Positions 6,150 to 22,983 of a stretch of 32,000 bases of DNA are shown one piece after another. A model generated the notes under the pieces. It ran no database searches. It was not told the origin of the DNA and saw only the letters and a program-made list of their open reading frames with translations. The stretch spans positions 51,876 to 83,875 of the forward strand of contig BEHE01000008.1 of the NCBI GenBank assembly GCA_002898395.1. Direction: 5' to 3'. The translations under genes were made by a program, and so were the position numbers. Numbering within the stretch: position 1 is the first letter of the stretch; every line of letters starts with the position of its first letter. This DNA is from Candidatus Calditenuaceae archaeon HR02. GTDB taxonomy: Archaea > Thermoproteota > Nitrososphaeria_A > Caldarchaeales > Calditenuaceae.

Positions 6150-7577
6150 TTATTCCACACAGCAGCTCATCTTCTGCAATGGTCTGAGGAAGGCCTGTGC
6201 ACTTAACTTCAGGGCCTCTGCGTATGTGGGGAACACGTGTATGGTGTTGACGATGTCCATGAATGTCTTGCCATATTTGATGTATAGGGCTGCCTCGGTT
6301 ATGTATTCGGCTGCGTTGTGTGAGACGATGTGCGCCCCCAACACCCTGCCATCGTCGGGCGCTATCACCAGCTTGGCCAGGCCAAGTGCACCCATCATTC
6401 TAGCCTTTGCGACGTTCTCCAAGGAAACTATCCTGCACGAGCATGCACCGAACCTCTTCACCACCTCCCTCTCAGTCAAACCCACTGAAGCCGCCTGCGG
6501 CTCAGTGAATACCACAAATGGAACGGCATCATAATCCATAGAAGCCGAACCCTCTTCGACGATGTTGGAAGCAGCCACCACACCCTCACGAGCAGACAGT
6601 GTCTCAAGCATTAGAGGCTTGGCTACACAGTCACCCGCGGAGTATATGTTGGGTGCACTTGTTCGCATCATCTCGTCCACCTTTATGAAGCCTCGCCCGT
6701 CGACGGCTACGCCACATTTTTCCAGCCCGATTCCATCCGTGTTTGGTTTTCTGCCTGTCGCTACCAGTATGGCGTCAGACTCTATGGTCTGCCTGCCCTC
6801 GTTGGTCACAACCACGGCGTGACTGTGACCTCCATGCTTCGAGAACTCTACAATCCTAGCCTTCATGATAATCCTCATCCCCTCGTCAGCCAATATATTG
6901 GCCAGTGTGGAGGATATCTCAGGCTCCATGTTGGGCAGAATCCTGTCAAGCACCTCGACCAGCGTCACTTGACAGCCCAGTCTCTGCATAGCCTGACCTA
7001 TCTCAAGCCCCACGGCACCCCCGCCCACCAGGAGCATGCTCTCGGGGAGGCTCTCTATCCCCCATATCGTGTCGGTGGTGTAGTATCCCACCTCCTCCAA
7101 CCCAGGTATGCTGGGCACGGATGGACGTGAGCCAGTTGCTATGAGGGCCTTTTGGAACCGTACCTCGCGTACTCCCTCACTTGTCTCCACCGCGATGGTA
7201 TGGGTTGAGGTGAATGAGGCCCTGCCCTCCACATGCTCCACGTTCGGATAATGCTTCAGGACATCAACATATTTCTCGCTACGCATAGAATCTACAAAAC
7301 TGCGGAGAGAGCCCATTAACCTGCCGAAGTCGAGGTCCGCGCCTTTGGGCGTGACTCCGTCGAACAAGGCCATGTGGCTGCTGTGATAGTGTTTGGCAGC
7401 CTCTATCAGGTATTTAGAGGGCACGCAGCCTACGTTGACACATGTTCCACCAAGCCTCCCAGCGGAAACCATCAAGATACTCATCCTACCCCCTGTTAGC
7501 TCGCTAGCCTTTATCGCAGCACTGAAAGCGGCAGCTCCTCCGCCGATTATAATCAAGTCGTATTTGGTATTTCTCAT
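6150..7577 (-). CDS. merA: Mercuric reductase (core enzyme, no N-terminal HMA/NmerA domain)
   Basis: DLIIIGGGAAAFSAA FAD motif and the redox-active GGTCVNVGCVPSK motif. The C-terminal vicinal Cys pair ...QKMSCCVE is diagnostic of MerA versus other class I disulfide reductases. HVFPTYAEALKLSAQAF precedes it. A GAGG lies 9 nt upstream of the ATG. Confidence 0.85.
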   Translation of the reverse strand: MRNTKYDLIIIGGGAAAFSAAIKASELTGGRMSILMVSAGRLGGTCVNVGCVPSKYLIEAAKHYHSSHMALFDGVTPKGADLDFGRLMGSLRSFVDSMRSEKYVDVLKHYPNVEHVEGRASFTSTHTIAVETSEGVREVRFQKALIATGSRPSVPSIPGLEEVGYYTTDTIWGIESLPESMLLVGGGAVGLEIGQAMQRLGCQVTLVEVLDRILPNMEPEISSTLANILADEGMRIIMKARIVEFSKHGGHSHAVVVTNEGRQTIESDAILVATGRKPNTDGIGLEKCGVAVDGRGFIKVDEMMRTSAPNIYSAGDCVAKPLMLETLSAREGVVAASNIVEEGSASMDYDAVPFVVFTEPQAASVGLTEREVVKRFGACSCRIVSLENVAKARMMGALGLAKLVIAPDDGRVLGAHIVSHNAAEYITEAALYIKYGKTFMDIVNTIHVFPTYAEALKLSAQAFLRPLQKMSCCVE

Positions 7578-7617: not shown

Positions 7618-7737
7618 TCATAGACCAGGCATCACCTTCTTTTTTCTTTCCCGCTTAATTCCTTCCGGCATCTCTTCTACTTTCTTTTCCGCGGTCCTTG
7701 CTTCTTCACCCATTCCGCCGCAGCAACACTCACACAT
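7618..7737 (-). CDS. 39-codon Cys-rich micro-ORF immediately upstream of merA (MCECCCGGMGEEARTAEKKVEEMPEGIKRERKKKVMPGL)
   Basis: Hand translation: ATG at 7735-7737, TGA at 7618-7620. It is too short for the ORF track. A TATA-like box lies about 27 nt upstream. No TATA box is visible between it and merA, which starts 40 nt downstream, so co-transcription with merA is likely. Confidence 0.35.
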   Translation of the reverse strand: MCECCCGGMGEEARTAEKKVEEMPEGIKRERKKKVMPGL

Positions 7738-7854: not shown

Positions 7855-9453
7855 TCAGCCAAACATTAACTTATCCATGGTTGACATGATAATTCCTCTC
7901 TTTTCGTCAGGAAGCCTCGCCACACATTCTATCATACTCTTTCTAACTATAGCTCGAAGGTTGCTTGGCAGTGTTTCCAGACCATCCATCATGTATTTCA
8001 CATGTTCCAGCCTCTGCCGGCCTGGACAAGTCGCCAAAAAGTCGAGCCTCTTATACATGACTACTAGTCTCTTTTCTTCCGATAGTGCAGCAAGCATGCC
8101 GGGCATTATCCTAAGTAAAGCTCTGAACTCGTTTCTTAGTGCTAGAGGTCTCACTACCAGCATCAGGATGGCTCCTAAAACAAAGAGAAAAATTCCTATG
8201 GAAAAATCTAGAGGATTGTTGGCATAGTTCAGGCTGTTTGTGAATACATGGATTTTTGTTCTAAAGGCAAATGCAAAGCTATAGATCAGAAGTACCACCC
8301 CCACCCAAAGAAGCAATTGCTTAAGGAATAGCTGTCGTCTTGTTTCTAAGCCTTCCAATAATCGTGACTTATACATCATCCTCACTGGAACCAAGATGAT
8401 GAAAGATATGACAACCGGAATTATGGCTGGCCAGTCTTCAGAACTTGGCACTAGAACGGTGAATGGTACTACCGCCCGAAAGGCATTAAGAAATCCATAG
8501 AGAAGGATCAATAGACCGAAGAACAGTAAGGATTCTTTGGCAAAATTTATTTTGTTTTTGAGTACTCCGCTGTTTCCAAGCAACCTCTCTCTTCTCAAAA
8601 TCATTTTGAATATTCCTCTTATGGGAATGAGAAACATTATTCCCCAGAAGGCCAGAATAAACCCCCACCAATTCCATCGTGGCAGAGTAGGATCGATGTG
8701 AAGCATCAGGATAAGCCCCATTCCGGTGAGCAAAACACCCTTGACAAGATTTACCCCACCAGGCAAAATCAGGTCAGGTCTGAAGGCAAACATTTCCCCC
8801 AATTCCAAGCCACTAACATACTGACCATGTGTCTTGCTGGATCCAAGCCATGCGGCAGAAGCCCAGAATCCAATTAGTAATCCGATAAGGACGAACGCAG
8901 GCAAGCTTAATTTTGTAGTTGCCGTTAAAAAGAATTGCTCCATGGAGAGCTTGCCAGATTCCTCCAACTGGTGTAGTTCATGCAATAAAGGTATAGCAAC
9001 TGTTAATCCAAAGGTAGCAATGGCGATGAACAATGGCATGAAAATTACCCCAGCAATAAACAAAACCGGTTTGTACTTGAAGTAATGCTGAAGCTCGGTA
9101 ATCGGATAGAGCATTATGCTCATAACCGCAGCAACTAGGCCGATTCCAATGATGGCTTCTGGCAAAAATAGTGGAACCTTTCTTTGTGTAAGGGAAACCG
9201 ACATGATAAGATATAGAATCCCCAAAAAAGGCAATGAGAGAAAGTGCAGGATCGGGATAGATTTTCTAACTTTTCCAACGTAAGCTGTGAATGTAAATGT
9301 TACGGGAAGAGAATACGCAACCAAAAGGCCCTCTAAAAATTTTTCATTACTAAATAGGTTTCCCATCAGCCAGTACCATGACAAGAATGTAAAAAGGAAT
9401 AGCAAAAAGAGTGGAACAACGCCCACTATGAAAGGAATACTTCTCATACTCAT
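7855..9453 (-). CDS. Polytopic membrane protein (>=12 predicted TM segments) with a C-terminal 4 x 19-aa Met-rich LPxEKR repeat domain
   Basis: 532-aa ORF that is hydrophobic throughout. The last 76 aa form four exact 19-residue units. It starts 7 nt after the stop of the upstream 130-aa repeat protein gene, so the two are probably an operon. Confidence 0.7.
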   Translation of the reverse strand: MSMRSIPFIVGVVPLFLLFLFTFLSWYWLMGNLFSNEKFLEGLLVAYSLPVTFTFTAYVGKVRKSIPILHFLSLPFLGILYLIMSVSLTQRKVPLFLPEAIIGIGLVAAVMSIMLYPITELQHYFKYKPVLFIAGVIFMPLFIAIATFGLTVAIPLLHELHQLEESGKLSMEQFFLTATTKLSLPAFVLIGLLIGFWASAAWLGSSKTHGQYVSGLELGEMFAFRPDLILPGGVNLVKGVLLTGMGLILMLHIDPTLPRWNWWGFILAFWGIMFLIPIRGIFKMILRRERLLGNSGVLKNKINFAKESLLFFGLLILLYGFLNAFRAVVPFTVLVPSSEDWPAIIPVVISFIILVPVRMMYKSRLLEGLETRRQLFLKQLLLWVGVVLLIYSFAFAFRTKIHVFTNSLNYANNPLDFSIGIFLFVLGAILMLVVRPLALRNEFRALLRIMPGMLAALSEEKRLVVMYKRLDFLATCPGRQRLEHVKYMMDGLETLPSNLRAIVRKSMIECVARLPDEKRGIIMSTMDKLMFG

Positions 9454-9460
9454 ATGAGCT

Positions 9461-9853
9461 TTACATCTTTATCCCTAGCTCCCTCATCATCTTAAGCATC
9501 ATTTCGCGACTTTCTGCGGGCAGTCCCATTAGAATAGCTTTTACTACCCGCATCTCTTTTAACTGTTTTTCAGAAGACAATTCCTGAAGCGCTGCAATAT
9601 GTGTTTTCATCAACTTTACCTGGTCTGACTCTGGAAATCCCATTAGGACCTGAAGACGCGTTCTTGCCAGCTTCTCATATTTTTCTTCGGGCAAATCAAG
9701 TGCAACGTCAAGCATCATCTTCATCGCATCTTTTCTCTTGTCATCAGGCATCTCTGCAAAGCTTTTCAGCCGCGTTTCCATCATAGCTTTCCTTGTATCC
9801 TCGGAAACAGTAGCAAGGCTCTCAACCATTTCTTTCACAGGATTGCTTGCCAT
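9461..9853 (-). CDS. Soluble all-repeat protein made of 19-aa Met-rich LPxEKR-type units, 13% Met
   Basis: 130 aa with no TM segment or signal peptide. It has five clean 19-20 aa units plus one degenerate unit, and 17 Met residues. A CTTAAATACT box lies about 35 nt upstream of the ATG. Confidence 0.7.
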   Translation of the reverse strand: MASNPVKEMVESLATVSEDTRKAMMETRLKSFAEMPDDKRKDAMKMMLDVALDLPEEKYEKLARTRLQVLMGFPESDQVKLMKTHIAALQELSSEKQLKEMRVVKAILMGLPAESREMMLKMMRELGIKM

Positions 9854-9966: not shown

Positions 9967-10161
9967 TCATCTTCTTCTTTTCGAACTTGAGAACATCACA
10001 GCAGCTCTGACCTCTTCTTTTTGCGAATCTTTTTTCAAAAGACGGAATATCTTGATATCTACAGCAAGTCCTGCTCCAGCCCCTGCAATACCAAGAATGT
10101 ATGGTACTCCAAAATAGCCGCCGATTATAAATCCAGCGAACAGGCCGATACAGCAGAACAA
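9967..10161 (-). CDS. Small hydrophobic protein with an N-terminal vicinal Cys pair (MFCCIGLFAGFIIGGYFGVPYILGIAGAGAGL...) and a basic tail
   Basis: 64 codons with a TTG start. A TTAAATAT box lies about 27 nt upstream. There are one or two Gly-rich TM segments. The short length and non-ATG start keep confidence low. Confidence 0.35.
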   Translation of the reverse strand: MFCCIGLFAGFIIGGYFGVPYILGIAGAGAGLAVDIKIFRLLKKDSQKEEVRAAVMFSSSKRRR

Positions 10162-10296: not shown

Positions 10297-10686
10297 CTAT
10301 TTTTTATCCTTTTCTATCAATGTACAGGAGCAATGGGCGACGACCGTCCCTTTCTGTTTCAGCGCCCACTGAAGGATTGGAATTATAGCTGCCCTGAGCC
10401 CCTCCCCCTCTTTAGTGAGCGTATATTCAACTCTTGGAGGGATTTCGTTGAATGTCTCTCTTTTTACCAGGTTGTGTTTCGCCAGGTCTTTTAGTGTGTC
10501 TGCAAGTATCTTTGGACTGATTCCCTGTAGCTCCTTCATCAATTCGTTGTAGCGTATCCTCCCGTGGTTGCCTATTTCATTCACTACCAGGAGAGTCCAT
10601 TTTTTGCCGATTAGGTCGATCACACCTTCTAGTGGGCAAAGGCATATAACACGGCTATCAGCTTTGCTACTTTTCTTGGTCGCCAC
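10297..10686 (-). CDS. HxlR-family winged-helix transcriptional regulator with N- and C-terminal CxC motifs
   Basis: CPLEGVIDLIGKKWTLLVVNEI...IRYNELMKELQGISPKILADTLKDLAKHNLVKRE...PPRVEYTLTKEG is the canonical HxlR/DUF24 core. GTG start. Cys15-x-Cys17 and Cys119-x-Cys121 are present. Confidence 0.85.
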   Translation of the reverse strand: MATKKSSKADSRVICLCPLEGVIDLIGKKWTLLVVNEIGNHGRIRYNELMKELQGISPKILADTLKDLAKHNLVKRETFNEIPPRVEYTLTKEGEGLRAAIIPILQWALKQKGTVVAHCSCTLIEKDKK

Positions 10687-11415: not shown

Positions 11416-12531
11416 TCACCAGTAAAGAAGCCAAGGAAAGAATCGTTCAACTATTAGGTAGCCAGGACTCGCAGAGGAGGCTGCCGCTGGCATGAAATAC
11501 AAGGCACATATTGCCAATGGAACTATCATTGCAATATGTGCCATGAACGGAAAAATGAAAAACCGAGGATAGTTGAATCGTATAGCGGGCATCATAGTTG
11601 GCATTACAGCCATCATAACAGCAAAGACAAAAATGCCCCATAGTATCGCCAGAGTCCACGAACCTCGCCCAAAGAGCATCGTATACGCAATTCCATATGT
11701 TGCGCCGTTGATGAAATGCCACAGATATCCCAGAAACAATATCCGAGCAGCAGAAATTTTCTCTTCCTTTAAAGTCATAGAGAAAGCAGCGGGGAAAAGC
11801 CTGAAAAAATCTTGGACGCTAATTTTAGGCATTTTCTTATGACCGCCGGGTGTGGCCATCCTCAGCTTTGCAGGTATGACTCCACGGTTTTCACGTATGT
11901 TTTCAGATGATGCAGAAAATACGAGTTCGTCCATGGTTCTCATTAATACAGATCTCTTTTCCGCAGGTAGAGTGGATAGAGCTTCGATTTGAGACTTTAC
12001 AAAGACTTCTCTCTTATCATCAGGTAGCATTTCTATTCCTCTCATCATTGCTAGCATCATCATCTTTCTCGCATCGTCTGGCAGGTTGCTTAACCATTGA
12101 ACTCTTTCGGCGATCATGCGATTTCTCTGCTGTTCTGGCATGTTGGCTATTTCTTTCACCAAATTCGCGATCACATTGCCCATGAATTTTGCCGCGACCC
12201 CAGACCACATCATACCAAATATCTTAGGCATATCTGCAGGAAACTCACCAAGTCTGACTCCGGTTAGTCTCACTATGTCGAGAGCTATTGTACCCAAAAG
12301 ACCACCAACGGCGCCCCATAAGATTAACTGTAGAATAGAACTGTTGACTGCAATTGACGATGTCAGCGTGATAACGAATACTGCCAAGGACACTATACCT
12401 ATCGTTTTAAAGAATTTGGGTGCAGGAAACGCCAGGATTCTGTCGGCCATGAGCCCTGCAGTAGGCGCACCCAGTGTAAGCATTATCGGAATCCATAAAG
12501 ACCAATCTACATTACTGAGTTCAATAGGCAT
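11416..12531 (-). CDS. Membrane protein with a central 4 x 19-aa Met-rich LPxEKR repeat domain between N- and C-terminal TM bundles
   Basis: 371 aa. About 3 TM segments, then residues 131-206 form four exact 19-aa units, then about 4 TM segments (WHFINGATYGIAYTMLFG...). It is Met-rich throughout. Confidence 0.7.
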   Translation of the reverse strand: MPIELSNVDWSLWIPIMLTLGAPTAGLMADRILAFPAPKFFKTIGIVSLAVFVITLTSSIAVNSSILQLILWGAVGGLLGTIALDIVRLTGVRLGEFPADMPKIFGMMWSGVAAKFMGNVIANLVKEIANMPEQQRNRMIAERVQWLSNLPDDARKMMMLAMMRGIEMLPDDKREVFVKSQIEALSTLPAEKRSVLMRTMDELVFSASSENIRENRGVIPAKLRMATPGGHKKMPKISVQDFFRLFPAAFSMTLKEEKISAARILFLGYLWHFINGATYGIAYTMLFGRGSWTLAILWGIFVFAVMMAVMPTMMPAIRFNYPRFFIFPFMAHIAMIVPLAICALYFMPAAASSASPGYLIVERFFPWLLYW

Positions 12532-12869: not shown

Positions 12870-13388
12870 CTAGTCGTCTCTTCTCTTCTCCGTATGGGCT
12901 GTTGTTGTCTTACGGCTTTCAAGTACGCTGACAGCATTAAGCGTCTTGAAGCCGCCTAGCTTGTATATAGAGAAGAACACGATACTAATCGATATCACTG
13001 TGAATATCGGCGAATAATATGTGAGGAAAAGGATAAGTCCGAGCGGAAGTAGAATACCTATGAACGAGAAACAGGCAGGGCAAATGCCAAACATTAATCC
13101 AATAACAGACCCTACAAACCCCATCCTTGTACTTTTTTCAGACTTGCAGTCCAGACACATGTTTCTTGTAAAAGAATAGAGTGAGATAAACATGCCAAAC
13201 AGGATGGAAAAGGCTATGTATAGTACCGAGTTAAGTGGCTTTTGCTGCAGGTCAAGCAACCATATTCTGAAAGCTAGTGGCGTGTTTATCAGCTGAATTA
13301 TCGGAAGTAGAGAGAAAATGCATGCTGCTGCCACTGCAATAACAGGCTTATTCTTTACAGCATAAAAGAGCAGTATGTGTGCTGCCAT
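12870..13388 (-). CDS. Four-TM membrane protein with a loop CxxC (CLDC) and an intramembrane CPAC motif; paralog of 14005..14604
   Basis: 172 aa. The segment ...YSFTRNMCLDCKSEKSTRMGFVGSVIGLMFGICPACFSFIGILLPLGL... carries both motifs. It is the last gene of a tight three-gene operon. A T5 tract (12826-12830 on the minus strand) lies about 40 nt after the stop. Confidence 0.65.
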   Translation of the reverse strand: MAAHILLFYAVKNKPVIAVAAACIFSLLPIIQLINTPLAFRIWLLDLQQKPLNSVLYIAFSILFGMFISLYSFTRNMCLDCKSEKSTRMGFVGSVIGLMFGICPACFSFIGILLPLGLILFLTYYSPIFTVISISIVFFSIYKLGGFKTLNAVSVLESRKTTTAHTEKRRDD

Positions 13389-13397
13389 TTCCCATCA

Positions 13398-14018
13398 TCA
13401 CTTTTGTGTTAAAAGAGGTGCAAGCACCTGCTTTATCTTCGAATATTCAAGTGGATATACATCCACCCACCGGATTATGCCATCCTTATCTAGTACGTAT
13501 TTTGTATCAAGATACCGCACCTTATATTGCGCTACCATATCTACGCCTGCTGCCACATACCAGTCCTCCCTGCCATACTTATTCTTCCAGTCTAAAAACT
13601 GGCTCTCAGTCTCCCTTGGGTCTACAAATACAATTAATACGTTGAAAGCATTGCCTCCAGTCTCGTCATCATATCTGGCCAGATTCTGAGCGCCTATCTG
13701 GCAGGGTGTGCACCAGGTGGTTGTAAAGAAGATCACAAGCGGCTTTCCATGGAATGTTGCTTTTGAGATAGGCCCCTTCAGAGGGTCTATGAGTCTGAAG
13801 TCGGGTGCCAACTGTCCCACTTCTAACCCTTCTACGACGACTGTTCCGGGGGCGACCGTAAGATTCCGACCACCAACGCTCGATGACGCTTGTGAATTAG
13901 ACAGGGTCATAAAAACCGCGCCTACTATTACAGCAATTCCTATTACACCTATAATAGTGGCAAAAAACTTAGCTGTGGATTTCTTTGGTTGTGACCCTCT
14001 TTTCTTACCCTTTCCCAC
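13398..14018 (-). CDS. Membrane-anchored TlpA/ResA-like thioredoxin-fold thiol:disulfide oxidoreductase (WCTPC)
   Basis: Basic N-terminus plus one TM anchor (FFATIIGVIGIAVIVGAVFMTL). The redoxin domain has PLVIFFTTTWCTPCQ and DKDGII, consistent with an extracytoplasmic Trx-like protein. Confidence 0.85.
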   Translation of the reverse strand: MGKGKKRGSQPKKSTAKFFATIIGVIGIAVIVGAVFMTLSNSQASSSVGGRNLTVAPGTVVVEGLEVGQLAPDFRLIDPLKGPISKATFHGKPLVIFFTTTWCTPCQIGAQNLARYDDETGGNAFNVLIVFVDPRETESQFLDWKNKYGREDWYVAAGVDMVAQYKVRYLDTKYVLDKDGIIRWVDVYPLEYSKIKQVLAPLLTQK

Positions 14019-14604
14019 AACAACTCCCCTCCTTCATTTTACTGATTTTGTCTGAAATCGAGAAAGTGCCTAGAGCCAGAACTGCCACAGTTAAGGGAGC
14101 CATGTAGCGGCTGTAGAGGGATAGGGAAGAGAAAGCAATTGCCCCGATGACAGAAACCATCAACCCGCCTCCACAGCATGCAAAGCTTGTAAAGAATGCG
14201 GGTAGCAAGCCCAAAAACCCCTCCAACCCTGTCGGCTTTCTAACTCTGCATACAGCGGCTAGTCTTCTAGAATAAAATGTTAGAGCAACATTAAGCCCAA
14301 CAAAGAACGACGACACTATCACGAAGGCGAGAGCATCATAAAAGATGAAGAAAAATACGTCTGGCGCAGGAATAACCAAGATTCCTATTGAGTATAACCT
14401 TATCATGGGGTAGTTGTCTGTGAAGGAGGTTAAACCAGGTCCGTATCTTATTACTCCAACAGCAACCATGTAGAATGAAGCGTAGGCTAGTCCAGACGCC
14501 AACAGTATTCCTAAATAACTTTTTGATTTTATGACATGAAAAATAGGTGCTAACATTCTCCTCTCTAAAAGGATGCTCTGCATGTATCCGCATGTTACTG
14601 TCAA
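14005..14604 (-). CDS. Membrane protein with an intramembrane vicinal Cys pair (FACCGGG) and a C-terminal SCCGKG tail; paralog of 12870..13388
   Basis: It overlaps the Trx-like gene by 14 nt. The segment ...FYSRRLAAVCRVRKPTGLEGFLGLLPAFFTSFACCGGGLMVSV... aligns with the CLDC/CPAC region of the 172-aa protein. The start is uncertain. The ATG at 14583 sits about 27 nt downstream of the TATA-like 14611-14632 and may be the true start. Confidence 0.65.
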   Translation of the reverse strand: MTVTCGYMQSILLERRMLAPIFHVIKSKSYLGILLASGLAYASFYMVAVGVIRYGPGLTSFTDNYPMIRLYSIGILVIPAPDVFFFIFYDALAFVIVSSFFVGLNVALTFYSRRLAAVCRVRKPTGLEGFLGLLPAFFTSFACCGGGLMVSVIGAIAFSSLSLYSRYMAPLTVAVLALGTFSISDKISKMKEGSCCGKG

Positions 14605-14965
14605 ACCGAGTATTTAAAGAATATTTTTATACCATAGTAGTTACTATCCTAATTGATAGTATTACAGCTTAGGCGACAAAGACTAACGTAAAAACCTCAG
14701 TAGATGTTTGATGTTGCAACATTATCCTTTCTTGAAGTAGCTTGGCATCTTTAACAATGTCTTTGAAGATAGCCAAGTACAAAACATCTGCATGCATAAT
14801 GCTATTACCCCAGCCAGCACATCCAAATCAAGCGTAACCTGAAAGAATACCACACCACACAACCACGCGTTAATCTGCTTGCTCAACTGTTTACCCAATC
14901 CGCTATACTCGCGCCACGTCTCATACCCAACTATCTTCTCACAATCCTCTCAGACACATAACGTT

Positions 14966-15224
14966 TCACACAAGTTGCCAACCCGCTTTAACAATCACAA
15001 CTTCTTCTCCATAAAATTTCGACGACGTCCTCGAAGAGTTATCTCCACGTTTCTCCACCTCGTTTACTGCGGGGCCTCAAGCAGCTCCTTCTGAGGTAGA
15101 TTTTAATATGTGCTATCTTTACGAATGCGATAAACACCTCAGCAAGTCATCCGAAGAGCTTCTCGTGAACATGCTCTAAACCTAGCCTCTCCAGCGCCCG
15201 GCTATACCATGGGCATTTATCACC
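14966..15224 (-). mobile_element. Decayed DDE transposase remnant, same type as 22501..22983 and 26761..27180
   Basis: Minus-strand fragments GDKCPWYSRALERLGLEHVHEKLFG* and NEVEKRGDNSSRTSSKFYGEE lie in different frames. They match the TDG..Y..A...LGLEH and (I/V)ER....LK.RT.RFYN blocks seen in the other remnants. No intact ORF exists across 14605-15589. Confidence 0.4.
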
Positions 15225-15589
15225 TAACTATCGCTTATCTTGATGAATCATGAATGCTAGAGCATATGGTATAGACGACCAGAATCTCCCCGGGACACAT
15301 GTCCACGGCCGACCATTAGTAGCATCCATAACCATTTTTCTTTCACTAGCTTTCACTAGTCAGTCAACGGTCCCCAGCTCCAACGGAGGTAACCGAAGAG
15401 AGAAGACATAAACTCGACTAAACAATTAAAGAGGTGCACGGCGTTGGATTAACGAATCAGGCCATAGGCCCAACCTAGAAAAGATTAACAGTATCAAGAC
15501 ACGCATAAAGATTGACAAATCAGGAAAAAGATGGGGGAGTTAAGAGAAGTATTCGTAAGCGTAGAACCCCCGCAGTATGACCAGCATTA

Positions 15590-15883
15590 TTATAACCGAG
15601 ACCGCAAGTAACGCCACCAGCCTCGTGAGTGCCCGTTCCTGTAGACCTTTTTACGGTAGATCTGTAGTGTAGCCAGCGAGAGCACTATGAAGAGGACCAG
15701 GAGGATTACGCCGTGTCCCACCCAGTGGTGTCCGAAGGTAGCTTTTAGTACACCCTTTAAAGGTGTCAGCTCCTTGACTACGGTGAGTGGGCCATTTAGG
15801 AGTGTGATGATTATCGATGATGTGAGTAGTGAGAAGGCCCATGCCTTTCTATGCTCGAGCCGTGTCTCAGCATCTACCCTCAC
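15590..15883 (-). CDS. Hypothetical small membrane protein (two TM segments)
   Basis: 97-aa ORF with two hydrophobic segments and a basic tail. No recognisable family. Confidence 0.3.
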   Translation of the reverse strand: MRVDAETRLEHRKAWAFSLLTSSIIITLLNGPLTVVKELTPLKGVLKATFGHHWVGHGVILLVLFIVLSLATLQIYRKKVYRNGHSRGWWRYLRSRL

Positions 15884-16174
15884 CCCTTGGCTAGGGCGAC
15901 TCTGTAACCGATCGAGACTAGAAGGTTAAACATGCGGAGCTTCAGGGATTGCTAGAGAAGCTTAAGGAAGAGGTGGATAAAGGCCCCAGTCTACCTAAGA
16001 GGGTCGGTGTTGATATAATTCCGAGATGCGGGTTAGGTTGGAGCGGGTGGCCTTAACTCGTCGGACTCCTCATTCCGCAGCGACTTTGGAGAGATGGTAG
16101 ATTAACCGGTGGAGCTCCTCAGAAATTGGAAGTGTTTATATAGCTTATGTTTAATTTAGTTGTACTGAGGTTTA

Positions 16175-16369
16175 ATGACTGTTAGTCGGGTTAAGCGTAT
16201 GGGCGGGTCATTGATGGTTACTATTCCTAAGGAGCTGGCGGATGCTTTGGGAATAAAGGAGGGAGAGATCGTTAGTATCGAGGTAAAGAAGCTGCGGCGT
16301 GATTTCTTTGGCGCATTAAGGAATTTGTCGCCCATGGCTACTGAAGAGGAGCTGCATTCCCATGAGTAG
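16175..16369 (+). CDS. AbrB/SpoVT/MazE-type antitoxin (VapB-like)
   Basis: RVKRMGGSLMVTIPKELADALGIKEGEIVSIEV is a swapped-hairpin AbrB domain. A TTTATATAG box at 16134-16142 and a GAGG lie upstream. Confidence 0.75.
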   Translation: MTVSRVKRMGGSLMVTIPKELADALGIKEGEIVSIEVKKLRRDFFGALRNLSPMATEEELHSHE

Positions 16370-16478
16370 GGTCTATGTGGTCGATGCATATGCATGGATT
16401 GATTATCTACGTGGGAGTAAAAAGGGAGAGTATGTTCTGGAGTCGTTGATGGCTTATTGTTTTCGCATCTGTGTGTAG
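16362..16478 (+). pseudogene. Truncated PIN-domain (VapC) toxin remnant
   Basis: The ATG at 16362 overlaps the antitoxin stop. MSRVYVVDAYAWIDYLRGSKKGEYVLESL... is a PIN N-terminus, but the frame stops after 38 codons. No frame downstream shows the rest of a PIN domain. Confidence 0.5.
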
Positions 16479-16854
16479 GTTCCGAGTCTCCGTCCAGGCT
16501 TTGGTGGAGGGTTCGCAATCGGATGATGGGAGGACGGCAGAGTTGCTGGAGCTGGTGAAGGAGATTTTGTAGCAGTTGGAGGTCTCTAGGGATGCTAGGG
16601 TGGATGAGGTGGTGGAAAGGGTTCTAGAGAGCATGCCTAGGAGGCTGGATGAGGTGACTGTCAGGGCAGAGGAGAGCTATACCTAACGGATTCTTAGGCT
16701 GGCCGGCGGCGTGGAGTTTTGGTGAGGAAGAGCGGGGCTATCGCCGTCAGGTCCTACATCCCACTCAATGACATATCCATAGTCAAGAAAATCTGGTAGT
16801 CAATCTAGAATGCCTCACCACGCCTCTACATCGTTCTGGTTTAGCCGTCCACCT

Positions 16855-17469
16855 CTACCTCTCTACCACTTTGCCTTTCTCGAACTTTGATGTAGCCTCC
16901 CAAATCCTTTGATGGGGTTTCCTCAATCTATGTGTTTCAACCTCATAAACGTATCCTGTTATCGCTACGTCTCGTGGTATCAGAGGGCTGTTTCTGAGTG
17001 CTTCCACGTTCTTTATGACGATATCGTCAATATATTCAACTCCTAGGTCTGTGAAGAATTTGAACCAGTTGGCAAACTCTTTTTCACCTTTTAGCCCGAG
17101 GGCTGGGAGTAGTGGGTCTATCGCCAGCTCGGCCGGCTTTATCCCACGCCTCAGGAAGTAGTCAGCCACCTCTGCACCTTTGAAGCGAAGCATGCCGCAA
17201 TCGGTATGGTTAACCACAATTATTTCTCTTGTGCCAAAGAAGTTGGTGGTGAGGGCTGCCGACCTTATTACGTCGTCGGTTACAACGCCTCCGGCGTTTC
17301 TGAATATGTGGGCGTCGTCGGGTTCTAGTCCCAGGGCGGACTCTATGCGGATTCTTTCATCCATGCAGGTCAACACGAATAGTGACCTGTTGTTGGGTAT
17401 TCCTCTAACTCTTCTCAACGCGTAGTCTTCGAGTTGTTTTATCTGTGCTTCCAGTCTCTCTGCGTGCAT
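16855..17469 (-). CDS. Beta-class carbonic anhydrase family protein (possibly CS2/COS hydrolase-like)
   Basis: Zn ligand motifs are CMDER and HTDCGM, with RNAGG between them. The start is trimmed to the ATG at 17467-17469 (MHAERLEAQIKQLEDYALRR...), about 27 nt downstream of an ACATAAATAC box. Confidence 0.8.
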   Translation of the reverse strand: MHAERLEAQIKQLEDYALRRVRGIPNNRSLFVLTCMDERIRIESALGLEPDDAHIFRNAGGVVTDDVIRSAALTTNFFGTREIIVVNHTDCGMLRFKGAEVADYFLRRGIKPAELAIDPLLPALGLKGEKEFANWFKFFTDLGVEYIDDIVIKNVEALRNSPLIPRDVAITGYVYEVETHRLRKPHQRIWEATSKFEKGKVVER

Positions 17470-18006
17470 ACTGTTGACTGGTGTGGAGGGGTATTTATGT
17501 ATTAGCCTATTACAATAATATGATAATATTATTATATTTAAAGGCATATTTCAGGAATAGACGCATCCCACCCGTAACAGCCCTAATATCACCCAACCAA
17601 AACCCAAGCCATCTCCTTAAACCAGCCGCTGAGAGGTTGGAAGTAGCTCCCCCCTCTACCGTAGGCCCTTATATATCTCTGGGCCCCTCCTAAGCATCTC
17701 CAGCCACCCGACGCAGTAGGTCCTGCAGACATGGCAGACATCGTCGAACAGCGTTACCTAGTCCCGGAAGGGTGCAAAGGTCTCTGCTGACCTATACCCA
17801 ACCTATTACTATATGACGAGATTAACGGTTTTAACGGGTATGGTATAGTAGCCGATGTACAGAATCATACCTTAATCACAGATTACTGACCAAAATGCAA
17901 TATAAAAGTAAAAAGAGCCAAGAATAGATATAGAAGGGGACCCCTAATCTTTACTAGACTAGAGTAGAAAATATTTATGCCCGAAACCTGTTAAACAGCC
18001 ATTGAA

Positions 18007-18630
18007 GTGGAGCTGATGAGCGGAGCCGCAAATGATGTGGTGAGAATAGTCCTGGAAGCGTGGAGGCGGACTTTCTCTCTGAGAACACTCGGCGGCGGGG
18101 TGATAAGGTGTCTACTCGTCTTCTGCGAGAACAACCTTGTGGAGTTGGAGACAGATGAGGTACGGAGCGTTGCGCCAATCAGTGGGCCTGAATCAGATCG
18201 GTTCTACAGTAGAAGCGGCCGCGCTGAGGAAGATGTGTTTTGGAGCGTAGTAGGAGAGATATTTGCAGAGATTCGAGGCGCCGATGAGAAGGATAGAACG
18301 TGGTATGCGGAATTAGCGAGGCTTAGTGGCCTCAAATACACTCACGCAGTCCAGATCATCCAACAGTTGATGGAAAAGTACTGGAGGATCTCCCATGTAA
18401 GGGTGGGATATGAGACGGGTTACGGCGAGCTCGATGGGTTGAAGGTGAAATCAAGAGGGAACAGGGTAGATTTGCAGTTCAAGGTGGGTGGAGAGAAGAA
18501 GAGATACGAGATAGTCTTTCTATCTAACGAGCACGTCGAGAATGCCTATAAAACCTTAAAGGAAGTTCTTAGGTTGGGACAAGGCAACAGTGATATATCT
18601 CCCCGGGACAGCGGGGTGGACAAGCTATGA
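18007..18630 (+). CDS. Hypothetical protein
   Basis: 207-aa ORF with a GTG start and no motif I recognise. The coding-like composition is the only support. Confidence 0.4.
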   Translation: MELMSGAANDVVRIVLEAWRRTFSLRTLGGGVIRCLLVFCENNLVELETDEVRSVAPISGPESDRFYSRSGRAEEDVFWSVVGEIFAEIRGADEKDRTWYAELARLSGLKYTHAVQIIQQLMEKYWRISHVRVGYETGYGELDGLKVKSRGNRVDLQFKVGGEKKRYEIVFLSNEHVENAYKTLKEVLRLGQGNSDISPRDSGVDKL

Positions 18631-18978
18631 GGATGGTTTGGGGCTCTTGACGTCATAGTGAGGAAAGAAAACATAGCAATTATCATATCCAGTTTCTTCT
18701 ACCTAACCAAAATCTTCTCGAATCAAAGGAATTTAAATAAAATAATTATTTCTCGGAGGGATTCAACACTTTCCCCCGTTGCTACAGCATAAACAATATA
18801 GTAAAGCAAACTGTCGCCAAGATAGAGGAGTCTAGCAATGGTGTCAAGAACATATAAATCCCTTCCATCTAAAATCGAGCACTTCAAAACTCATACTACC
18901 CCTGTACCTCATCTTCGCAAGCCACGTATGTGGGTTAACGGTCTATAGAGGGGTGCTTTGGTGAAAACAATTACGATG

Positions 18979-19401
18979 CTACACTTCAGAGAGATGCTTT
19001 ATGTTTGTTAATGGGACTTTTGCTACAACCTCTTTATCGGCTGTATAGAGGGTTGCATTCTGTAACATGGCTAGGGAGACATAAACTGCATCATATAGCG
19101 TTATGCCGAACTTATATGCCAGTTCCACCGCTCTTTCACGCAGTTCCCCTTTAAACTCGTAGGTAGTTATGCTCATGTCTTCTAGGGCTTTGAGAGCTGT
19201 CTTGACATCCTCAATCCCAAATCTTGGATTATACCTTAAGGCGTTAGCCACCTCGTAGTGTAGAAGGACTGGCGCTATCAAGTCTATCTCACCGTTAGCA
19301 TACCTATTCCTTATTGTTAATGCCTCCTTCCTTAGTGGCTCGACGTTGAACCATTTCACTGCTACACTTGCGTCAAGTACGAGTATCTTCTCCTCCTCCA
19401 T
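18979..19401 (-). CDS. vapC: PIN-domain toxin VapC
   Basis: ILVLDASVAVKW (first acidic residue), ...LIAPVLLHYEVANAL, DAVYVSLA and LYTADKE give the full PIN acidic quartet pattern. Confidence 0.85.
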   Translation of the reverse strand: MEEEKILVLDASVAVKWFNVEPLRKEALTIRNRYANGEIDLIAPVLLHYEVANALRYNPRFGIEDVKTALKALEDMSITTYEFKGELRERAVELAYKFGITLYDAVYVSLAMLQNATLYTADKEVVAKVPLTNIKHLSEV

Positions 19402-19637
19402 CTGATCACCTCATCCTCAGCTATCCAGCCAGACCCCTCCGATAACTTCGCCAGCCTATCCATCTCCTCGATAGCACGCTTAATGGTTGTGGTGTCTTTA
19501 GTGGACCTCATTCTTCGCTCCTCCTGCTCCACAACAGTTTCAACATACCTCCTAAGGAGCTCGCTCCAGTTTATGTGGCGGAGCCTATCTATCCTAGCTT
19601 TAAGCCTCTTATCGACCCGGAAGCTGATGATGCTCAC
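19362..19637 (-). CDS. vapB: Ribbon-helix-helix antitoxin (VapB)
   Basis: From the GTG at 19635-19637: (M)SIISFRVDKRLKARIDRLRHINWSELLRRYVE... is an RHH N-terminus. An ATACTTATTAAA box lies about 25-30 nt upstream. The ORF-track start at 19871 is probably an over-extension. It overlaps vapC by 40 nt. Confidence 0.6.
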   Translation of the reverse strand: MSIISFRVDKRLKARIDRLRHINWSELLRRYVETVVEQEERRMRSTKDTTTIKRAIEEMDRLAKLSEGSGWIAEDEVIRWRRRRYSYLTQV

Positions 19638-19822
19638 ATGTCTTGTAATACATCGCTGTTTAATAAGTATTACAGTTCCCCACTCCGCAGCCCAACATAT
19701 ATAGCAGTTTTCCACCCCCTTATTAGAGAGAAGGATCTCAGCCTTAGGAGCTAGGTGGGGCGTGGTGAGCGGGGAAGCCTTCAGGGAGGGCATGAGATGC
19801 CTTATCGGGAAAGAGTTAGGAG

Positions 19823-20272
19823 ATGAATAGGCATAAGAGCGGGAAGGTGCTGATTGACGAGTGGGTCCCAACGGGAGAGGTAGGGGTAGAAAGCGTACAG
19901 GAGAGAATCGTTGGCCAAAATCCAGTTATAAATCGACTACATGTTTGGTTTGCGCGTCGTCCACCCGTGGCTTCTAGGGCTGCTGTTCTTGCCTCCATAC
20001 TCCATCCCGAGACCACTAGAGAGGAGTTTCTTAGGCTGTTGGGCATTCCTCACGACAGGAACGTGGTCGCGGCTGCCGAGAAACTAGCTAGGGCCAAGGC
20101 CAACAAGGTTAGGCTTAAGGAGAATCCGTTTACTTGGGAGAGGGCCTTCAAATATACTCCGCCCAAGCCTCAGCCAGATGAGCTAATGGAGAGTGTTAGG
20201 GAGTGGGGCCATAGGATATTGAGACTCTTCAATCCATCTAGGAAGTTTAGCTACAGACGAGACAGTGGCTAA
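19823..20272 (+). pseudogene. Truncated N-terminal DUF1156 domain of a defence-island DNA methylase-like protein
   Basis: GKVLIDEWVPTGEVGVES...NRLHVWFARRPPVASRAAVLASIL is the DUF1156 signature as I recall it. Full-length members are several-fold longer. This frame ends after 149 codons and runs into AT-rich sequence of a different character. Confidence 0.6.
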
Positions 20273-21240
20273 GAATAACAGTAACATGTAGAGAAGTTCT
20301 ATAACAATATGAACTCCAAGACTGTCAAAAGCATTAAGGAGATAGCGACTACGATGGCCCTAATACACAACATACTTCTCGAGAACAGAGAGGGAGCTGC
20401 AACACTTGATAGTGCAAAGGATAGAGTGTATGAAAGTAGCTTACCTTGCATAGCATAGAAGATATTTTTAGCTGTACGTGGATGTGTGGGTAGTCTGGGT
20501 AAAGTTGTCGGTATAGATTCATCTGAGCATCTGAATTTCATTGGTTTCGTTTCTGGAACATTAGATCCTATCTGCGCATATACTGGTATTAGTGATCTCA
20601 GATACGAGTTGAGCCGATCGACTAGAGTTCCCGCAAGCGCGCTAGAGGGCTCGCTTAAAAGGAATTTAGCGAAGTTGATATTGAAGATAGTCTTAGTAGA
20701 GAGTCTTGGAAAGGTCTACGCCGATGTTGAGATATCTCAACCACCAGGAAAACTTGGTAATTAGATCATCCCATGGGTTACCAATAAAATTGGCCGATAT
20801 AATTGCTTGGACGAACTTAAGAAGACCACACGACATAACACGAGGCGGCAAGTTTTCGGGGGCAGTTAAGTTAACTTGAAAGAGGAACCGGCAAAAATGG
20901 TAAGGTCAGAGTTTAGAATTTAACGTCGGGCTCACATCAGCCCCCGCCCCTATGCCTGTTCATTCATCCCCGAACTTTTTCAGGCATAGCATGAGGGGTT
21001 CGGACCCTCATCCAGTTATCACTCCCCTTTCCTTACCTTTAAGCCTTTCCTATAAATGGGTGGGGACTGTCAACTAGGTGTTACGCCTCCTCGGGTGTAA
21101 GGAAGGTGTTAGGTACTCAGGAGCGCGAATCGTCTGCAAGAGGTACCTGTAATACGCTCGTTGCTCCTAGCACCATTTAACCAACATGTCTACAAGGTGG
21201 TTAAGTGCGTTGTTATCCCTTACGATGCCCAGATGAGCGA

Positions 21241-22173
21241 TTATATTATCGATGCAATGTTGAGTTCTTGCATAACCCTGTTTATCGGATTCGCCAATGA
21301 AAATATATCACTTCCTGCAAAGAGGACCCCTATCGCCCTATTGTTCTCATCTACTACAAGGCTACCAGAGTCTCCTCCTTTACTAAATCCACCTGGCTGA
21401 ATAACAATTTGGTCATCAAATGTCAGATGTCCTAGGCTTAGGTAATTAACTTTAACATAAGCTCGTAGTATAACAATTACACCACGTGTCAAGCCAGTTG
21501 TCCTTCCACTCTTCTTTACATGTAAGCTCAATGTTGGCATTCCCACACCCCTCACCTTGCCAATGTAAAATATATCGGGACTAACATCTTGTATGTTTAT
21601 CGGCCTAGCTAGGGCGGCATCAACATAGTTAATGCCATTAGGATTCAAAAAAGTCCACGTCCATAATGTAGCAATTGTATCGTTAGGATTTCCCCCGTCA
21701 TAAGGACCAGGTTGGTATATAGGATCACCTATTCTGGCATTGTTAGAGTTTGCAAGCACATGATTATTGCTGAGAATGTATACATGACCTTCATTATCTC
21801 GAACCAGACATCCTAAGGTGCCAGCAGTGACCATATAGTGACCTATACTCACACCCCCCTGAGCTGGCCTAACCCTTTGTCTTGATACGTAAGGAATTGG
21901 TCTTGCACTTTGGAGCTCGCCAGCTACAATAGCTGTTACTGGTACGCCGAACTGATCCGCAATGGCTTGAGCTATTGGTTGAGCGTATTCGTTTCCCCGC
22001 CGAAGGAGGATAGCTAATGCTTGCCTACCGTTTGTGTAGGTTATCCCAATACCGTTCACATCATTTTCAAGCGTTCTTGATGAGACTCTCGCTGCAGCAA
22101 ATAACTTGTTTATATTAGCTCGCGAACCAAAGAAGCAGTCTATGCAATAACGTCGAGCCTGCTCAACGCTCAT
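21241..22173 (-). CDS. PA-clan (chymotrypsin/trypsin-fold) serine protease with an N-terminal pro-domain-like module
   Basis: The catalytic triad appears in the order H (ILSNNHVLA), D (YVDAALA), S (KGGDSGS). GRTTGLTRG precedes the Ser block. Confidence 0.75.
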   Translation of the reverse strand: MSVEQARRYCIDCFFGSRANINKLFAAARVSSRTLENDVNGIGITYTNGRQALAILLRRGNEYAQPIAQAIADQFGVPVTAIVAGELQSARPIPYVSRQRVRPAQGGVSIGHYMVTAGTLGCLVRDNEGHVYILSNNHVLANSNNARIGDPIYQPGPYDGGNPNDTIATLWTWTFLNPNGINYVDAALARPINIQDVSPDIFYIGKVRGVGMPTLSLHVKKSGRTTGLTRGVIVILRAYVKVNYLSLGHLTFDDQIVIQPGGFSKGGDSGSLVVDENNRAIGVLFAGSDIFSLANPINRVMQELNIASII

Positions 22174-22408
22174 GTATAACTCCTTTAAGCGGCTGAAACT
22201 CTCCTGAAACCAATATTCGATATGGAATAGGGATGTCTCTCATAAGACGCTCTATTTTAGCACAAGTATCTTTATCGTCCTCCCTAAGCATGACGATCAC
22301 ATACAGAGAGCCCTGATGCCCTCCTATACCAACTCCAGATACACCTTCTATCTCCATGAGGCGAGACTTCACTTCTCTTAAACGCTCCTCAAATTCATCT
22401 TGACTCAT
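22163..22408 (-). CDS. Small protein resembling the pro-domain-like module of the downstream protease
   Basis: 81 aa. IEGVSGVGIGGHQGSLYVIVML...IPIPYRILVSGEFQ aligns with NDVNGIGITYTNGRQALAILL...FGVPVTAIVAGELQ of the protease N-terminus. It overlaps the protease gene by 11 nt. Confidence 0.55.
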   Translation of the reverse strand: MSQDEFEERLREVKSRLMEIEGVSGVGIGGHQGSLYVIVMLREDDKDTCAKIERLMRDIPIPYRILVSGEFQPLKGVIHER

Positions 22409-22500
22409 TACACCTTATGTTTGATCGCACAGCTAATTAATCCTTTCGCATATTTGAGGGGCACCGTCAGCCAGGTATTACGACTCTTCCTTCCCATGGA

Positions 22501-22983
22501 TTAGGTCTTAGGTTGTGTATTTGTCGTTGCTATCTCCTCAATACTCCTCACCATCTCTGTGTTTATGTTGTTGTAGAGCCTCTTTGTTCTGTCTTTCAAT
22601 TCCCTGAAGAACCTCTCTATCCCGTTCCTCTCCCCGAACGTCTCATGAACATACTTAAGCCTCCCACGGATACCAAGGACCCCTATTATCGATGGCTTAT
22701 CATTATTCTTAACAACCGTCTCGTCTACAGCCACCACCTCCCTAAACATAATCCTAGATAGGTTAAGGAGCCTTGATATCCCAACGACCTCCCTAGATGA
22801 GAGACACAGGCTTAGACCCGCAACGTACAAGACGACGACATAAACCCTCTCGAAAAGAATCGTTATAGAACCTGAACTAGATACACGTTTGAAGACGTAT
22901 GTGGCAGCTGAGGGGGAAAAATGGTATTGCCCTAACGGAGGGAAAACCATATAAAAGATGACTGTGCCCAGATTTCTGAACAA
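22501..22983 (-). mobile_element. Internally shortened DDE transposase remnant (IS6-like, tentative)
   Basis: Blocks present are LYVAGLSLCLSSREV, VVAVDETVVK and NGIERFFRELKDRTKRLYNNI. The segment between the DE and the E blocks is far too short for an active enzyme. Confidence 0.55.

Follow-up and report, generated by a model that had tools for sequence, protein, structure and literature searches.

By what route does Hg(II) enter an archaeal cell that reduces it? In the earlier picture of archaeal mercury resistance (mer), a locus often held MerA only (PMC3466566). No Hg transporter from archaea appears in the mer gene surveys PMC3466566 and PMC8261052, MerT, MerC and MerF being the transporters named in the second of these, and our literature searches found neither a thaumarchaeal mer transporter nor a link between HxlR-family regulators and mer. 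Here, we analyse a stretch of 32,000 nucleotides (nt) from Candidatus Calditenuaceae archaeon HR02, hereafter the window, in which three closely packed genes encode a membrane protein (A), a membrane-anchored thioredoxin-like protein (Trx) and a second membrane protein (C). Judged by its genomic company, this A-Trx-C unit quite probably has some part in a mercury-resistance system, while its being the membrane module of a Nitrososphaeria-type mer locus that acts as an Hg(II) import relay is a proposal to which we would give an even chance. The unit is most likely the membrane half of such a system of soil ammonia-oxidizing archaea. Archaea that oxidize ammonia nitrify in large numbers in soils and waters, habitats in which mercury pollution is widespread.

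A tightly packed three-gene operon

The unit consists of the following genes, in which transmembrane helices are abbreviated TM and protein lengths are given in amino acids (aa).

14005..14604, minus strand: gene A, 199 aa, a 4-TM membrane protein with C143/C144 in the FACCGGG motif of TM3, C119 in a predicted cytoplasmic loop and a C-terminal SCCGKG
13398..14018, minus strand: Trx gene, 206 aa, a TM-anchored thioredoxin domain of the TlpA/ResA/AhpC-TSA type with the motif WCTPCQ
12870..13388, minus strand: gene C, 172 aa, a 4-TM membrane protein with CPAC (C103/C106) at a break in the TM3 helix and CxxC (C78/C81) in a K/R-rich TM2-TM3 loop

These open reading frames (ORFs) are co-directional, A and Trx overlapping by 14 nt and Trx and C lying 9 nt apart, so that the tight packing described in an earlier note on this DNA is reproduced in full. 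We regard all three as genuine genes, since each has homologs (43 for A, 94 for C and many for Trx) and their synteny is conserved; the homologs of A and C retrieved by database search are 45-75% identical to the window proteins and are labelled hypothetical in their source annotations. For A, the TTG at 14604 is probably not the start codon and the true start an ATG at 14583, giving a protein of 192 aa, because all homologs open with MQS, the residues that begin at this ATG. With a TTTAAATA box upstream of A, at 14618-14611, transcription would begin only after the TTG. In N. viennensis, the orthologous genes are NVIE_1289 (A) and the two genes that follow it downstream.

Linkage to mercury resistance genes

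The decisive evidence for function is genomic context, which was mapped by tblastn and hidden Markov models (HMMs) in 38 loci (numbered with an L below). Trx lies directly upstream of C in 26 of the 26 loci that have a full-length orthologous C, and the commonest arrangement is MerA-Trx-C in a single operon. A signature-complete MerA stands beside Trx-C in 14 loci, and in at least eight it is directly upstream, sometimes with overlapping stop and start codons. MerA-Trx-C loci are found in Nitrosotenuis, Nitrosotalea, Nitrosarchaeum, a metagenome-assembled genome (MAG) of Nitrososphaera and other Nitrosopumilaceae and Thaumarchaeota MAGs; L021, which is labelled Aenigmatarchaeota, and L031 are more distant examples. 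Six more loci have MerA divergent from Trx-C or in its vicinity, with L004, L005, L023, L038 and the window counted and L037 left out; N. viennensis-like, Nitrosothermus and other Nitrososphaeraceae loci are of this kind. Every readable active site of these linked MerA proteins is CVNVGC and all carry a C-terminal SCCxE; MerB (PF03243) is present in four Trx-C neighbourhoods, and a regulator of the HxlR family lies beside Trx-C or MerA in most loci, an ArsR-type regulator taking its place in L031.

Within the window, the two genes that tie A-Trx-C to this pattern are as follows.

6150..7577, minus strand: MerA, 475 aa, core only, without an NmerA domain
10297..10686, minus strand: HxlR regulator (Pfam HxlR, 3.7e-23), with an N-terminal CLCP and a C-terminal HCSC

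MerA scores 541.8 bits against the TIGR02053 equivalog (cutoff 454.45), with the active-site cysteines C45/C50 in CVNVGC and C472/C473 in its C-terminal SCCVE. In an alignment with Tn21 MerA, its Y103 and F449 pair with the counterparts of Tyr194 and Tyr535, both of them among the signature criteria for MerA, with the archaeal Phe at the second position (PMC3466566). In the thaumarchaeal orthologs of the HxlR protein, CLCP is again N-terminal, with FCP instead in two second copies, and a CxC motif is C-terminal.

The earlier note had proposed that the phylogenetic distribution of the three-gene unit be checked. The Trx-C pair proved invariable, as stated above, and it is A that is restricted in lineage, being found in Nitrososphaeraceae, in Nitrosothermus and as one distant copy in Nitrosotenuis. 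The order A-Trx-C is kept in six loci (the window, L004, L009, L023, L037 and L038); elsewhere C is accompanied by a protein of a third family, X, or by neither. X follows C where A is missing in L001, L010, L011 and L019, and C has neither A nor X in L015, L016, L025 and L031, all with full context.

Two departures from the usual arrangement deserve description in their own right. In L016 (8898-9440) and L018 (~575-1085), both from Nitrosotenuis and both without an adjacent MerA, Trx-C is immediately preceded by the gene for a cytoplasmic thioredoxin (WCPWC), a possible acceptor or donor for C, whose N-terminal domain is like the DUF7128 zinc ribbon and whose C-terminal tail carries KCC or GCC. 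In the Nitrososphaeraceae loci L037 (1660-6411) and L038 (8728-13491), A-Trx-C is divergent from genes for CbtB, CbtA, an s64-like protein (s64 being a small membrane protein described below) and a CopC-CopD-Vgb_lyase fusion of ~1000 aa. The same two loci encode extra A-type paralogs, A' with a QCQC loop and A'' of 225 aa; A-type paralogs are also paired there without Trx or C (L037 365-1585; L038 7436-8651). The region looks like a larger metal island.

Two membrane protein families with paired cysteines

A and C belong to small families. All 43 database homologs of A are of Nitrososphaerales type and the 94 homologs of C are spread across Nitrososphaeria; an exhaustive search of the C profile against 1.84 billion representative proteins returned 71 clusters only at E<=1e-3, hence a small family. 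Neither protein has a Pfam, NCBIfam or PDB sequence match, whether as a single sequence, through its family members or as a profile, the Pfam scan of the family alignments covering 26 C and 24 A members (50 in all) at E<=10. Homology to a family without a redox or metal role, which would have spoken against the earlier note, was thus not found in these databases.

The paired cysteines are strongly conserved. F[AS]CC is present in TM3 of 43/43 A homologs and none of the 24 aligned A sequences lacks the loop cysteine C119; CPAC is kept in 93/94 C homologs and the loop CxxC in 91/94; the intramembrane pairs to which the earlier note drew attention are therefore a conserved property of the orthologs. 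Its comparison of the SCCGKG end of A with the mobile CC tail of MerA fares less well: the tail is unique to the window sequence, a CC being found there in 1 of 43 family members and a single C-terminal Cys in 32.

Family-averaged hydropathy and K/R counts, read by the positive-inside rule, predict four TM helices with both termini inside for A, C and X. The mean K/R count is 2-6 in the N-terminus, the TM2-TM3 loop and the C-terminal tail and 0-1.2 in the remaining loops, and since the loop and tail cysteines lie in K/R-rich segments they are predicted to be cytoplasmic, with the Cys pair in the middle of TM3. This topology does not place the Cys pairs of A and C in incompatible compartments. 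The AlphaFold2 model of C (pLDDT 76.6) agrees with the 4-TM prediction, showing four long helices with a break at residues 102-105, which is CPAC; a Foldseek search of this model across the PDB gave no fold match (best E 7.8). In the C superfamily, two N-terminal TMs precede TM3 and an outer amphipathic segment, NTPLAFDIW, is conserved. Distant relatives keep the CxxC of TM3 and have the cytoplasmic Cys pair shifted from the loop to the C-terminus.

That A and C are diverged paralogs had been suggested from an alignment of their Cys regions. The direct comparison does not carry this, since BLASTP gives an undetectable E of 13 and hhalign a weak 18%, and the relationship is instead bridged by family X. 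These proteins are ~166 aa long, contain GAGAGVCxxCGS in TM3 and have a Cys at the C-terminus. They are encoded directly after C in several Nitrosopumilales loci, and hhalign aligns their profile with that of C (96.2%, E 2.3e-9, 135 columns) and with that of A (94.7%, E 6.1e-8, 125 columns). When C, X and the distant relatives were combined in a superfamily profile of 84 sequences, this aligned with the A profile at 97.1% (E 6e-11, 141 columns), scoring 71 vs 13 for reversed A. An HMM search across families, run on the 1,261 ORFs of all fetched loci, gave matches at E<=1 to A, C and X members alone, save one Bacteroides ORF that had been selected by motif. On these profile comparisons, A and C are paralogs within a small, mostly thaumarchaeal 4-TM superfamily.

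Some outlying sequences were met along the way. The Bacteroides clarus locus (L030) was dropped, its GICPACFS being a chance motif in a glycosyltransferase, and P0167, in which a KAS-like N-terminus is joined to a C-like end, is chimeric or mis-called in appearance and was not used. Truncated C-like ORFs of 85-109 aa (L028 10055-10384; L029 5429-5686) retain GVCPACFSF, have no Trx partner and lie directly downstream of rhodanese-like genes; they may be half-size paralogs with a sulfurtransferase partner, or pseudogenes. Locus L021 (6456-12396) carries MerA-X-Trx-C and two further C/X-like paralogs, giving four superfamily members in one locus, several with C-terminal CxxC tails, an arrangement that may stem from horizontal transfer or mis-binning of the MAG.

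An anchored thioredoxin between them

The earlier description of a membrane-anchored, TlpA-like WCTPC thioredoxin at the centre of the operon is borne out. Trx matches AhpC-TSA (PF00578; 2e-13, 50.8 bits, cutoff 26) and Redoxin (PF08534; 1.2e-8, 35.3 bits, cutoff 26.6) in Pfam, and WC[TV][PS]C is kept in 18/19 aligned Trx proteins, the remaining one being a mis-called ORF. Its matches to the ResA and TlpA equivalogs of NCBIfam are weak, with scores so far under the cutoffs that it is an ortholog of neither. A K/R-rich N-terminus leads into a single TM helix, an anchor conserved among the aligned orthologs, and because of this combination the thioredoxin domain is predicted to face outward, on the extracytoplasmic side. 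In two orthologs (L021 and L031), a lipobox-like signal (GC) replaces the anchor. The Haft SAO preprint, which was also considered, deals with another Trx-like protein.

A local likeness to MerC

With both known precedents for paired TM cysteines in mind, CcdA/DsbD on the one hand and the mercury transporters on the other, we compared the families with profiles of each. The proteins of the window have no match to MerC (PF03203) at E<=1. The C and X profiles each reach about 50-63% against MerC residues ~9-61 in hhalign, and the superfamily profile reaches 85-87.5% (E 3.6e-6 to 6e-6) over 41 columns of a shallow MerC profile. In this alignment CPAC falls on CAAC within MerC residues 9-49 (GxxGS...C-A-A-C-F...L-x-x-Y), the Hg-binding TM1, and the score of 39.3 compares with 22.1 as the maximum of 100 block shuffles and 19.2 for a reversed control. 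The MerC profile is shallow because the homolog search gave close relatives only, its sequences being >=73% identical to Tn21 MerC among the matches listed. The likeness is thus suggestive, and local rather than a sign of family membership. Comparisons with single sequences of MerT, MerP and MerE of Tn21 and of MerF gave no more than 17% in hhalign and no match to PF02411, PF11431 or PF05052.

Nothing comparable was seen for CcdA/DsbD. The 50 members have no PF02683 (DsbD_TM) or PF13386 (DsbD_2) match at E<=10, hhalign against a DsbD_TM protein (CcdA) from L034 gives <=1.2%, there are four TMs and not six, and both cysteines lie in one helix, so that homology of A and C to CcdA/DsbD is not supported. 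We favour the MerT/MerC-like precedent because of the MerA, MerB and Cys-rich HxlR context together with the MerC helix match.

A proposed route for Hg(II)

Mercury transporters of the MerT, MerC and MerF type combine a membrane Cys pair with a cytoplasmic pair. A and C have the MerT/MerF-type layout of a TM Cys pair and predicted cytoplasmic cysteines. The vicinal CC motif is met repeatedly across the locus, in A, in s64, at the tail of MerA and in small Cys-rich peptides. Such vicinal pairs are good for Hg(II) coordination and poor for disulfide exchange.

In the relay that we propose, the reduced WCTPC dithiol of Trx would capture Hg(II) outside the cell, in a role like that of MerP, and thiol ligand exchange would then pass the ion to CPAC at the broken TM3 of C and, here, also to the vicinal CC of A. 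From there it would move to the loop or tail cysteines of C and A on the cytoplasmic side and on to the C-terminal CC of MerA, where it would be reduced to Hg(0). The Cys-rich HxlR protein would probably control the A-Trx-C and MerA units through a shared palindromic operator. We infer Hg binding, the direction of transfer and regulation by HxlR from sequence and context. The broader proposition, that the A/C/X superfamily with its outward Trx is the missing archaeal Hg(II) uptake pathway, controlled by HxlR and with the MerC helix as a distant relative or offshoot, we put forward tentatively and at a little under even chances.

Several observations count against import of mercury as the function of the unit. 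Anchored WCxPC thioredoxins of the TlpA/ResA type are usually reductases and not metal carriers, and the HxlR family is better known for sensing electrophiles and oxidants. The 26 C and 24 A members have no Pfam match to MerT, MerC, MerF or MerE even at E<=10, the MerC match covers 41 columns of one helix-loop in a low-diversity profile, and the AlphaFold2 model of A is poor (pLDDT 56.8). Some loci, such as L016 with 20 kb of context, have Trx-C without an adjacent MerA, and in L037 and L038 A-Trx-C adjoins CbtAB and the CopC-CopD fusion, so that another thiophilic metal is possible.

Should the unit prove a true uptake route, three unannotated families and a Trx-fold analogue of MerP would join the mer toolkit, supplying markers by which thaumarchaeal metagenomes could be judged for their potential to detoxify mercury, an HxlR protein as candidate for an Hg-responsive regulator, with its operator, and a hint of an evolutionary link to bacterial MerC. 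Should it be a reductant relay instead, it would be a means of powering extracytoplasmic thioredoxins in archaea independently of CcdA, which would also be new.

Alternative explanations

That last possibility is the main rival, although we consider it unlikely. C, and A with it, would be non-homologous analogues of CcdA/DsbD that feed the outer Trx, with reductant passing from a cytoplasmic dithiol (possibly a MerA-like flavoprotein or a cytoplasmic thioredoxin) to the loop CxxC, the TM3 CPAC and finally Trx, which would keep surface thiols reduced or repair mercurated or oxidised envelope proteins, and so protect the cell rather than import Hg. The WCTPC of Trx, a protein of TlpA/ResA/AhpC-TSA type, is reductase-like, the two CxxC motifs of C could serve as successive cytoplasmic and intramembrane stations, the WCPWC thioredoxin with its KCC tail stands in MerA's place upstream of Trx-C in L016 and L018, and a distant relative (P0202) is found among DsbD_TM and thioredoxin genes together with an HxlR gene. 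Yet there is no sequence or fold likeness to CcdA, DsbD, VKOR or DsbB, and the vicinal CC and single loop Cys of A are ill-suited to disulfide exchange. In L034 the distant relative adjoins genuine DsbD_TM genes and is therefore not needed there as a conduit. Of the remote matches, the best is that with MerC's Hg-binding helix, local and from a shallow profile though it is, and MerB and the metallothionein-like peptides of the same loci point to metal traffic. The reductant relay and the Hg hand-off are in any case compatible, since Hg(II) binding needs a reduced Trx.

Less probable again is an obligatory A:C heterodimer, in which the two half-size paralogs would form a split pseudo-symmetric transporter around Trx, as the earlier note had imagined. 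The paralogy of A and C, the A-Trx-C order in six distinct loci and the frequent appearance of X after C where A is missing are in keeping with such an arrangement. Obligate pairing is not supported by the distribution of its parts: C is always with Trx, but A is lineage-restricted and is elsewhere replaced by X or by nothing, as in the four loci with full context where C is alone, and A-type pairs exist without Trx or C in L037 and L038.

Finally, it is quite improbable that the unit is not mercury-specific and serves a general HxlR-controlled thiol, electrophile or soft-metal (Cu(I), Cd, Ag) response, with Trx, A and C handling copper, another thiophilic ion or oxidant damage and MerA being just one of several neighbours in an island of metal-stress genes: the CbtB/CbtA, s64-like CC protein and CopC-CopD genes divergent from A-Trx-C in L037 and L038, a Trx score that equals the SCO1/SenC cutoff along part of that model, the Met-rich repeats of three window proteins (M371, p130 and p532, below) and the identification of some so-called MerA flavoproteins as oxidant reductases (NCBIfam NF041853; PMC6067689) are outweighed by MerA-Trx-C, and not CopCD, being the most widespread operon, by the Hg-specific C-terminal CC in all linked MerA and the signature Tyr and Phe of the window MerA, by the recurrence of MerB, which has no known role beyond organomercurial cleavage, by the CxxC of Trx where Sco proteins have CxxxC and His, and by a window without CopC, CopD or CbtA genes.

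Putative promoter and operator elements

The Hg(II) import reading supposes joint control of A-Trx-C and MerA, and the regions upstream of both units contain related elements.

14609..14661, minus strand: putative A-Trx-C promoter/operator, a palindrome with promoter-like boxes

The palindrome TACTATC-N6-GATAGTA lies at 14642-14661 and overlaps ATAGTAACTAC (14637-14647); it is followed by ATAAAAATAT (14630-14621) and TTTAAATACT (14618-14609). The layout ATAGT-N-ACTAT / ATAAAxT / TTAAATAC is also present upstream of A in L004 and L009. In the window, a palindrome, ATAGTAACTAT, is found at 7788-7798 upstream of the MerA unit and a promoter-like ATAAACT-N7-TTAAATAC at 9884-9905 upstream of p130; a palindrome of ATAGT-N1-2-ACTAT type followed by ATAAAxT precedes both A and MerA, and TTAAATAC is shared by A and p130. 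The exact TACTATC-N6-GATAGTA occurs once in the window, which alone is not above chance; the shorter ATAGT-N-ACTAT core recurs, with 4 matches to the core pattern at <=1 mismatch vs 0.59 expected in the window. There are three distinct core-pattern sites, two of them upstream of A and of MerA. We infer from this that the palindrome may be an HxlR operator and that A-Trx-C and MerA may be co-regulated by HxlR.

The regulator has four conserved Cys in the window and in L001-L026, as N-terminal [IVL]CLCPL and C-terminal HC[SAEQN]C, and is, with its operator, a candidate for a new type of Hg(II)/thiol sensor. Divergent promoters of HxlR loci contain ACTAY/RTAGT half-sites around a TTAAATA box.

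The wider neighbourhood

The mer set of the window lies on one strand and comprises, besides A-Trx-C, HxlR and MerA, the following reading frames.

11416..12531, minus strand: M371, a 371-aa membrane protein with Met-rich DUF3106-like repeats and a C-terminal DUF6789-like membrane domain
9967..10161, minus strand: s64, a small membrane protein that starts MFCC
9461..9853, minus strand: p130, with a DUF3106-like repeat
7855..9453, minus strand: p532, with a DUF3106-like repeat
7618..7737, minus strand: a 39-aa Cys-rich ORF (MCECCCGG..., MCECCCGGMGEE) directly upstream of MerA, without a Pfam match

M371, p130 and p532 share the Met-rich repeat (LPxxxR...MMM) and appear to be part of the mer neighbourhood. 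The C-terminal domain of M371, weakly DUF6789/CbtA-like, adjoins MerA, MerB or HxlR in L011, L013, L015, L017 and L038. The 39-aa ORF, which begins shortly after the 7788-7798 palindrome in the direction of transcription, may be a Cys-rich metal-binding peptide or spurious.

Proteins of the s64 type have 64-92 aa, one or two TMs, an M[FL]CC start and no Pfam family, and are encoded between HxlR and MerA or beside CbtAB/CopCD. A second CC is present in the cytoplasmic tail of 4/5 orthologs, listed here, and not in the window copy.

L004 3914-4174; L019 371-595; L037 5021-5284; L038 4255-4533 and 12091-12354: s64 orthologs

In Nitrosopumilales mer loci, a peptide of ~48 aa is encoded directly upstream of MerA, with the layout CxxC-x17-FCSxxC and a C-terminal CC or CCC. 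It scores 27.5-28.4 bits against metallothionein PF02069, under the cutoff of 33, and its layout is FCS zinc-finger-like and TRASH-like; TRASH proteins in mer operons have been described for Sulfolobus only (PMC3466566).

L001 ~3880-4030; L015 ~2885-3035; L019 ~2850-2995; L025 ~7850-7995: ~48-aa peptide

On the opposite strand, MerA is adjoined by a second pyridine-nucleotide disulfide oxidoreductase at 4485..5840 (plus strand), CoA-disulfide-reductase-like and under the equivalog cutoff. The GC content at 5001-6000 is 0.64 vs 0.42-0.50 elsewhere in the window, and this stretch with the 4485..5840 gene may be of foreign origin. The stretch 15000..32000 of the window has a low coding density, with PIN-domain genes at 18979-19401 and 28884-29297 and apparent gene fragments (19823-20272, from the N-terminal part of DUF1156, and 24541-24912, from ATPase_2), and looks degraded or rich in mobile elements; Rfam and tRNA scans of the whole window found nothing.

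Comparison with known systems

Among known systems, VKOR and DsbB differ from A and C: the A and C members have no Pfam match to them, the model of C has no fold match in the PDB, and both of their Cys pairs are extracytoplasmic, whereas the loop CxxC of C is predicted to be cytoplasmic. The CcdA/DsbD systems with TlpA, ResA or CcmG share with A-Trx-C an anchored WCxPC thioredoxin and its Cys-bearing membrane partner, and resemble it in having stations at the predicted cytoplasmic side and within the membrane. CcdA, however, has six TMs with one Cys per pseudo-symmetric half, whereas A and C have four with both Cys in one helix, and the gene partners are those of cytochrome-c maturation in the one case and MerA and MerB in the other.

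Of the archaeal mer loci, that of Sulfolobus, with an ArsR-type MerR, the TRASH protein MerH and MerA (PMC3466566), has in common with the window a core-only MerA and a regulator outside the MerR family. Features like those of Sulfolobus recur elsewhere in the set, as the Cys-rich peptides upstream of Nitrosopumilales MerA and the ArsR-type regulator of L031. The Sulfolobus locus lacks membrane components, whereas the locus described here adds Trx, C, A or X, s64 and HxlR.

The earlier appeal to MerT- and MerC-like transporters has held up best, supported as it is by a strong genomic association with MerA, MerB and a Cys-rich regulator, and also by the local match to the MerC helix. MerC, the 4-TM importer of Hg(II) and organomercurials found in Tn21-type bacterial systems, shares with the topology predicted for the superfamily four TMs, termini on the inside, a CxxC in a TM helix that runs from in to out and cytoplasmic cysteines, and like the superfamily it has a place in a mer locus with MerA. 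Its Cys helix is TM1, whereas that of the C/X superfamily is TM3, after two extra N-terminal TMs; its cytoplasmic Cys pair is in the C-terminal tail and that of C in the TM2-TM3 loop; and C differs further in its obligatory pairing with a Trx-fold partner. With MerT and MerP the relay would share its logic, from an outer dithiol protein to a membrane Cys pair, a cytoplasmic pair and the C-terminal CC of MerA. The vicinal CC of MerT and MerF is seen again in A and s64, and those s64 orthologs that have a second cytoplasmic CC are similar in layout to MerF. MerP is a soluble protein of the HMA (ferredoxin-like) fold, whereas the outer partner here is a membrane-anchored thioredoxin fold. The relay proposed for A-Trx-C would thus follow a mer logic that is already familiar, carried by new membrane proteins whose likeness to MerC is remote at most, and with a Trx-fold protein in the place of MerP.

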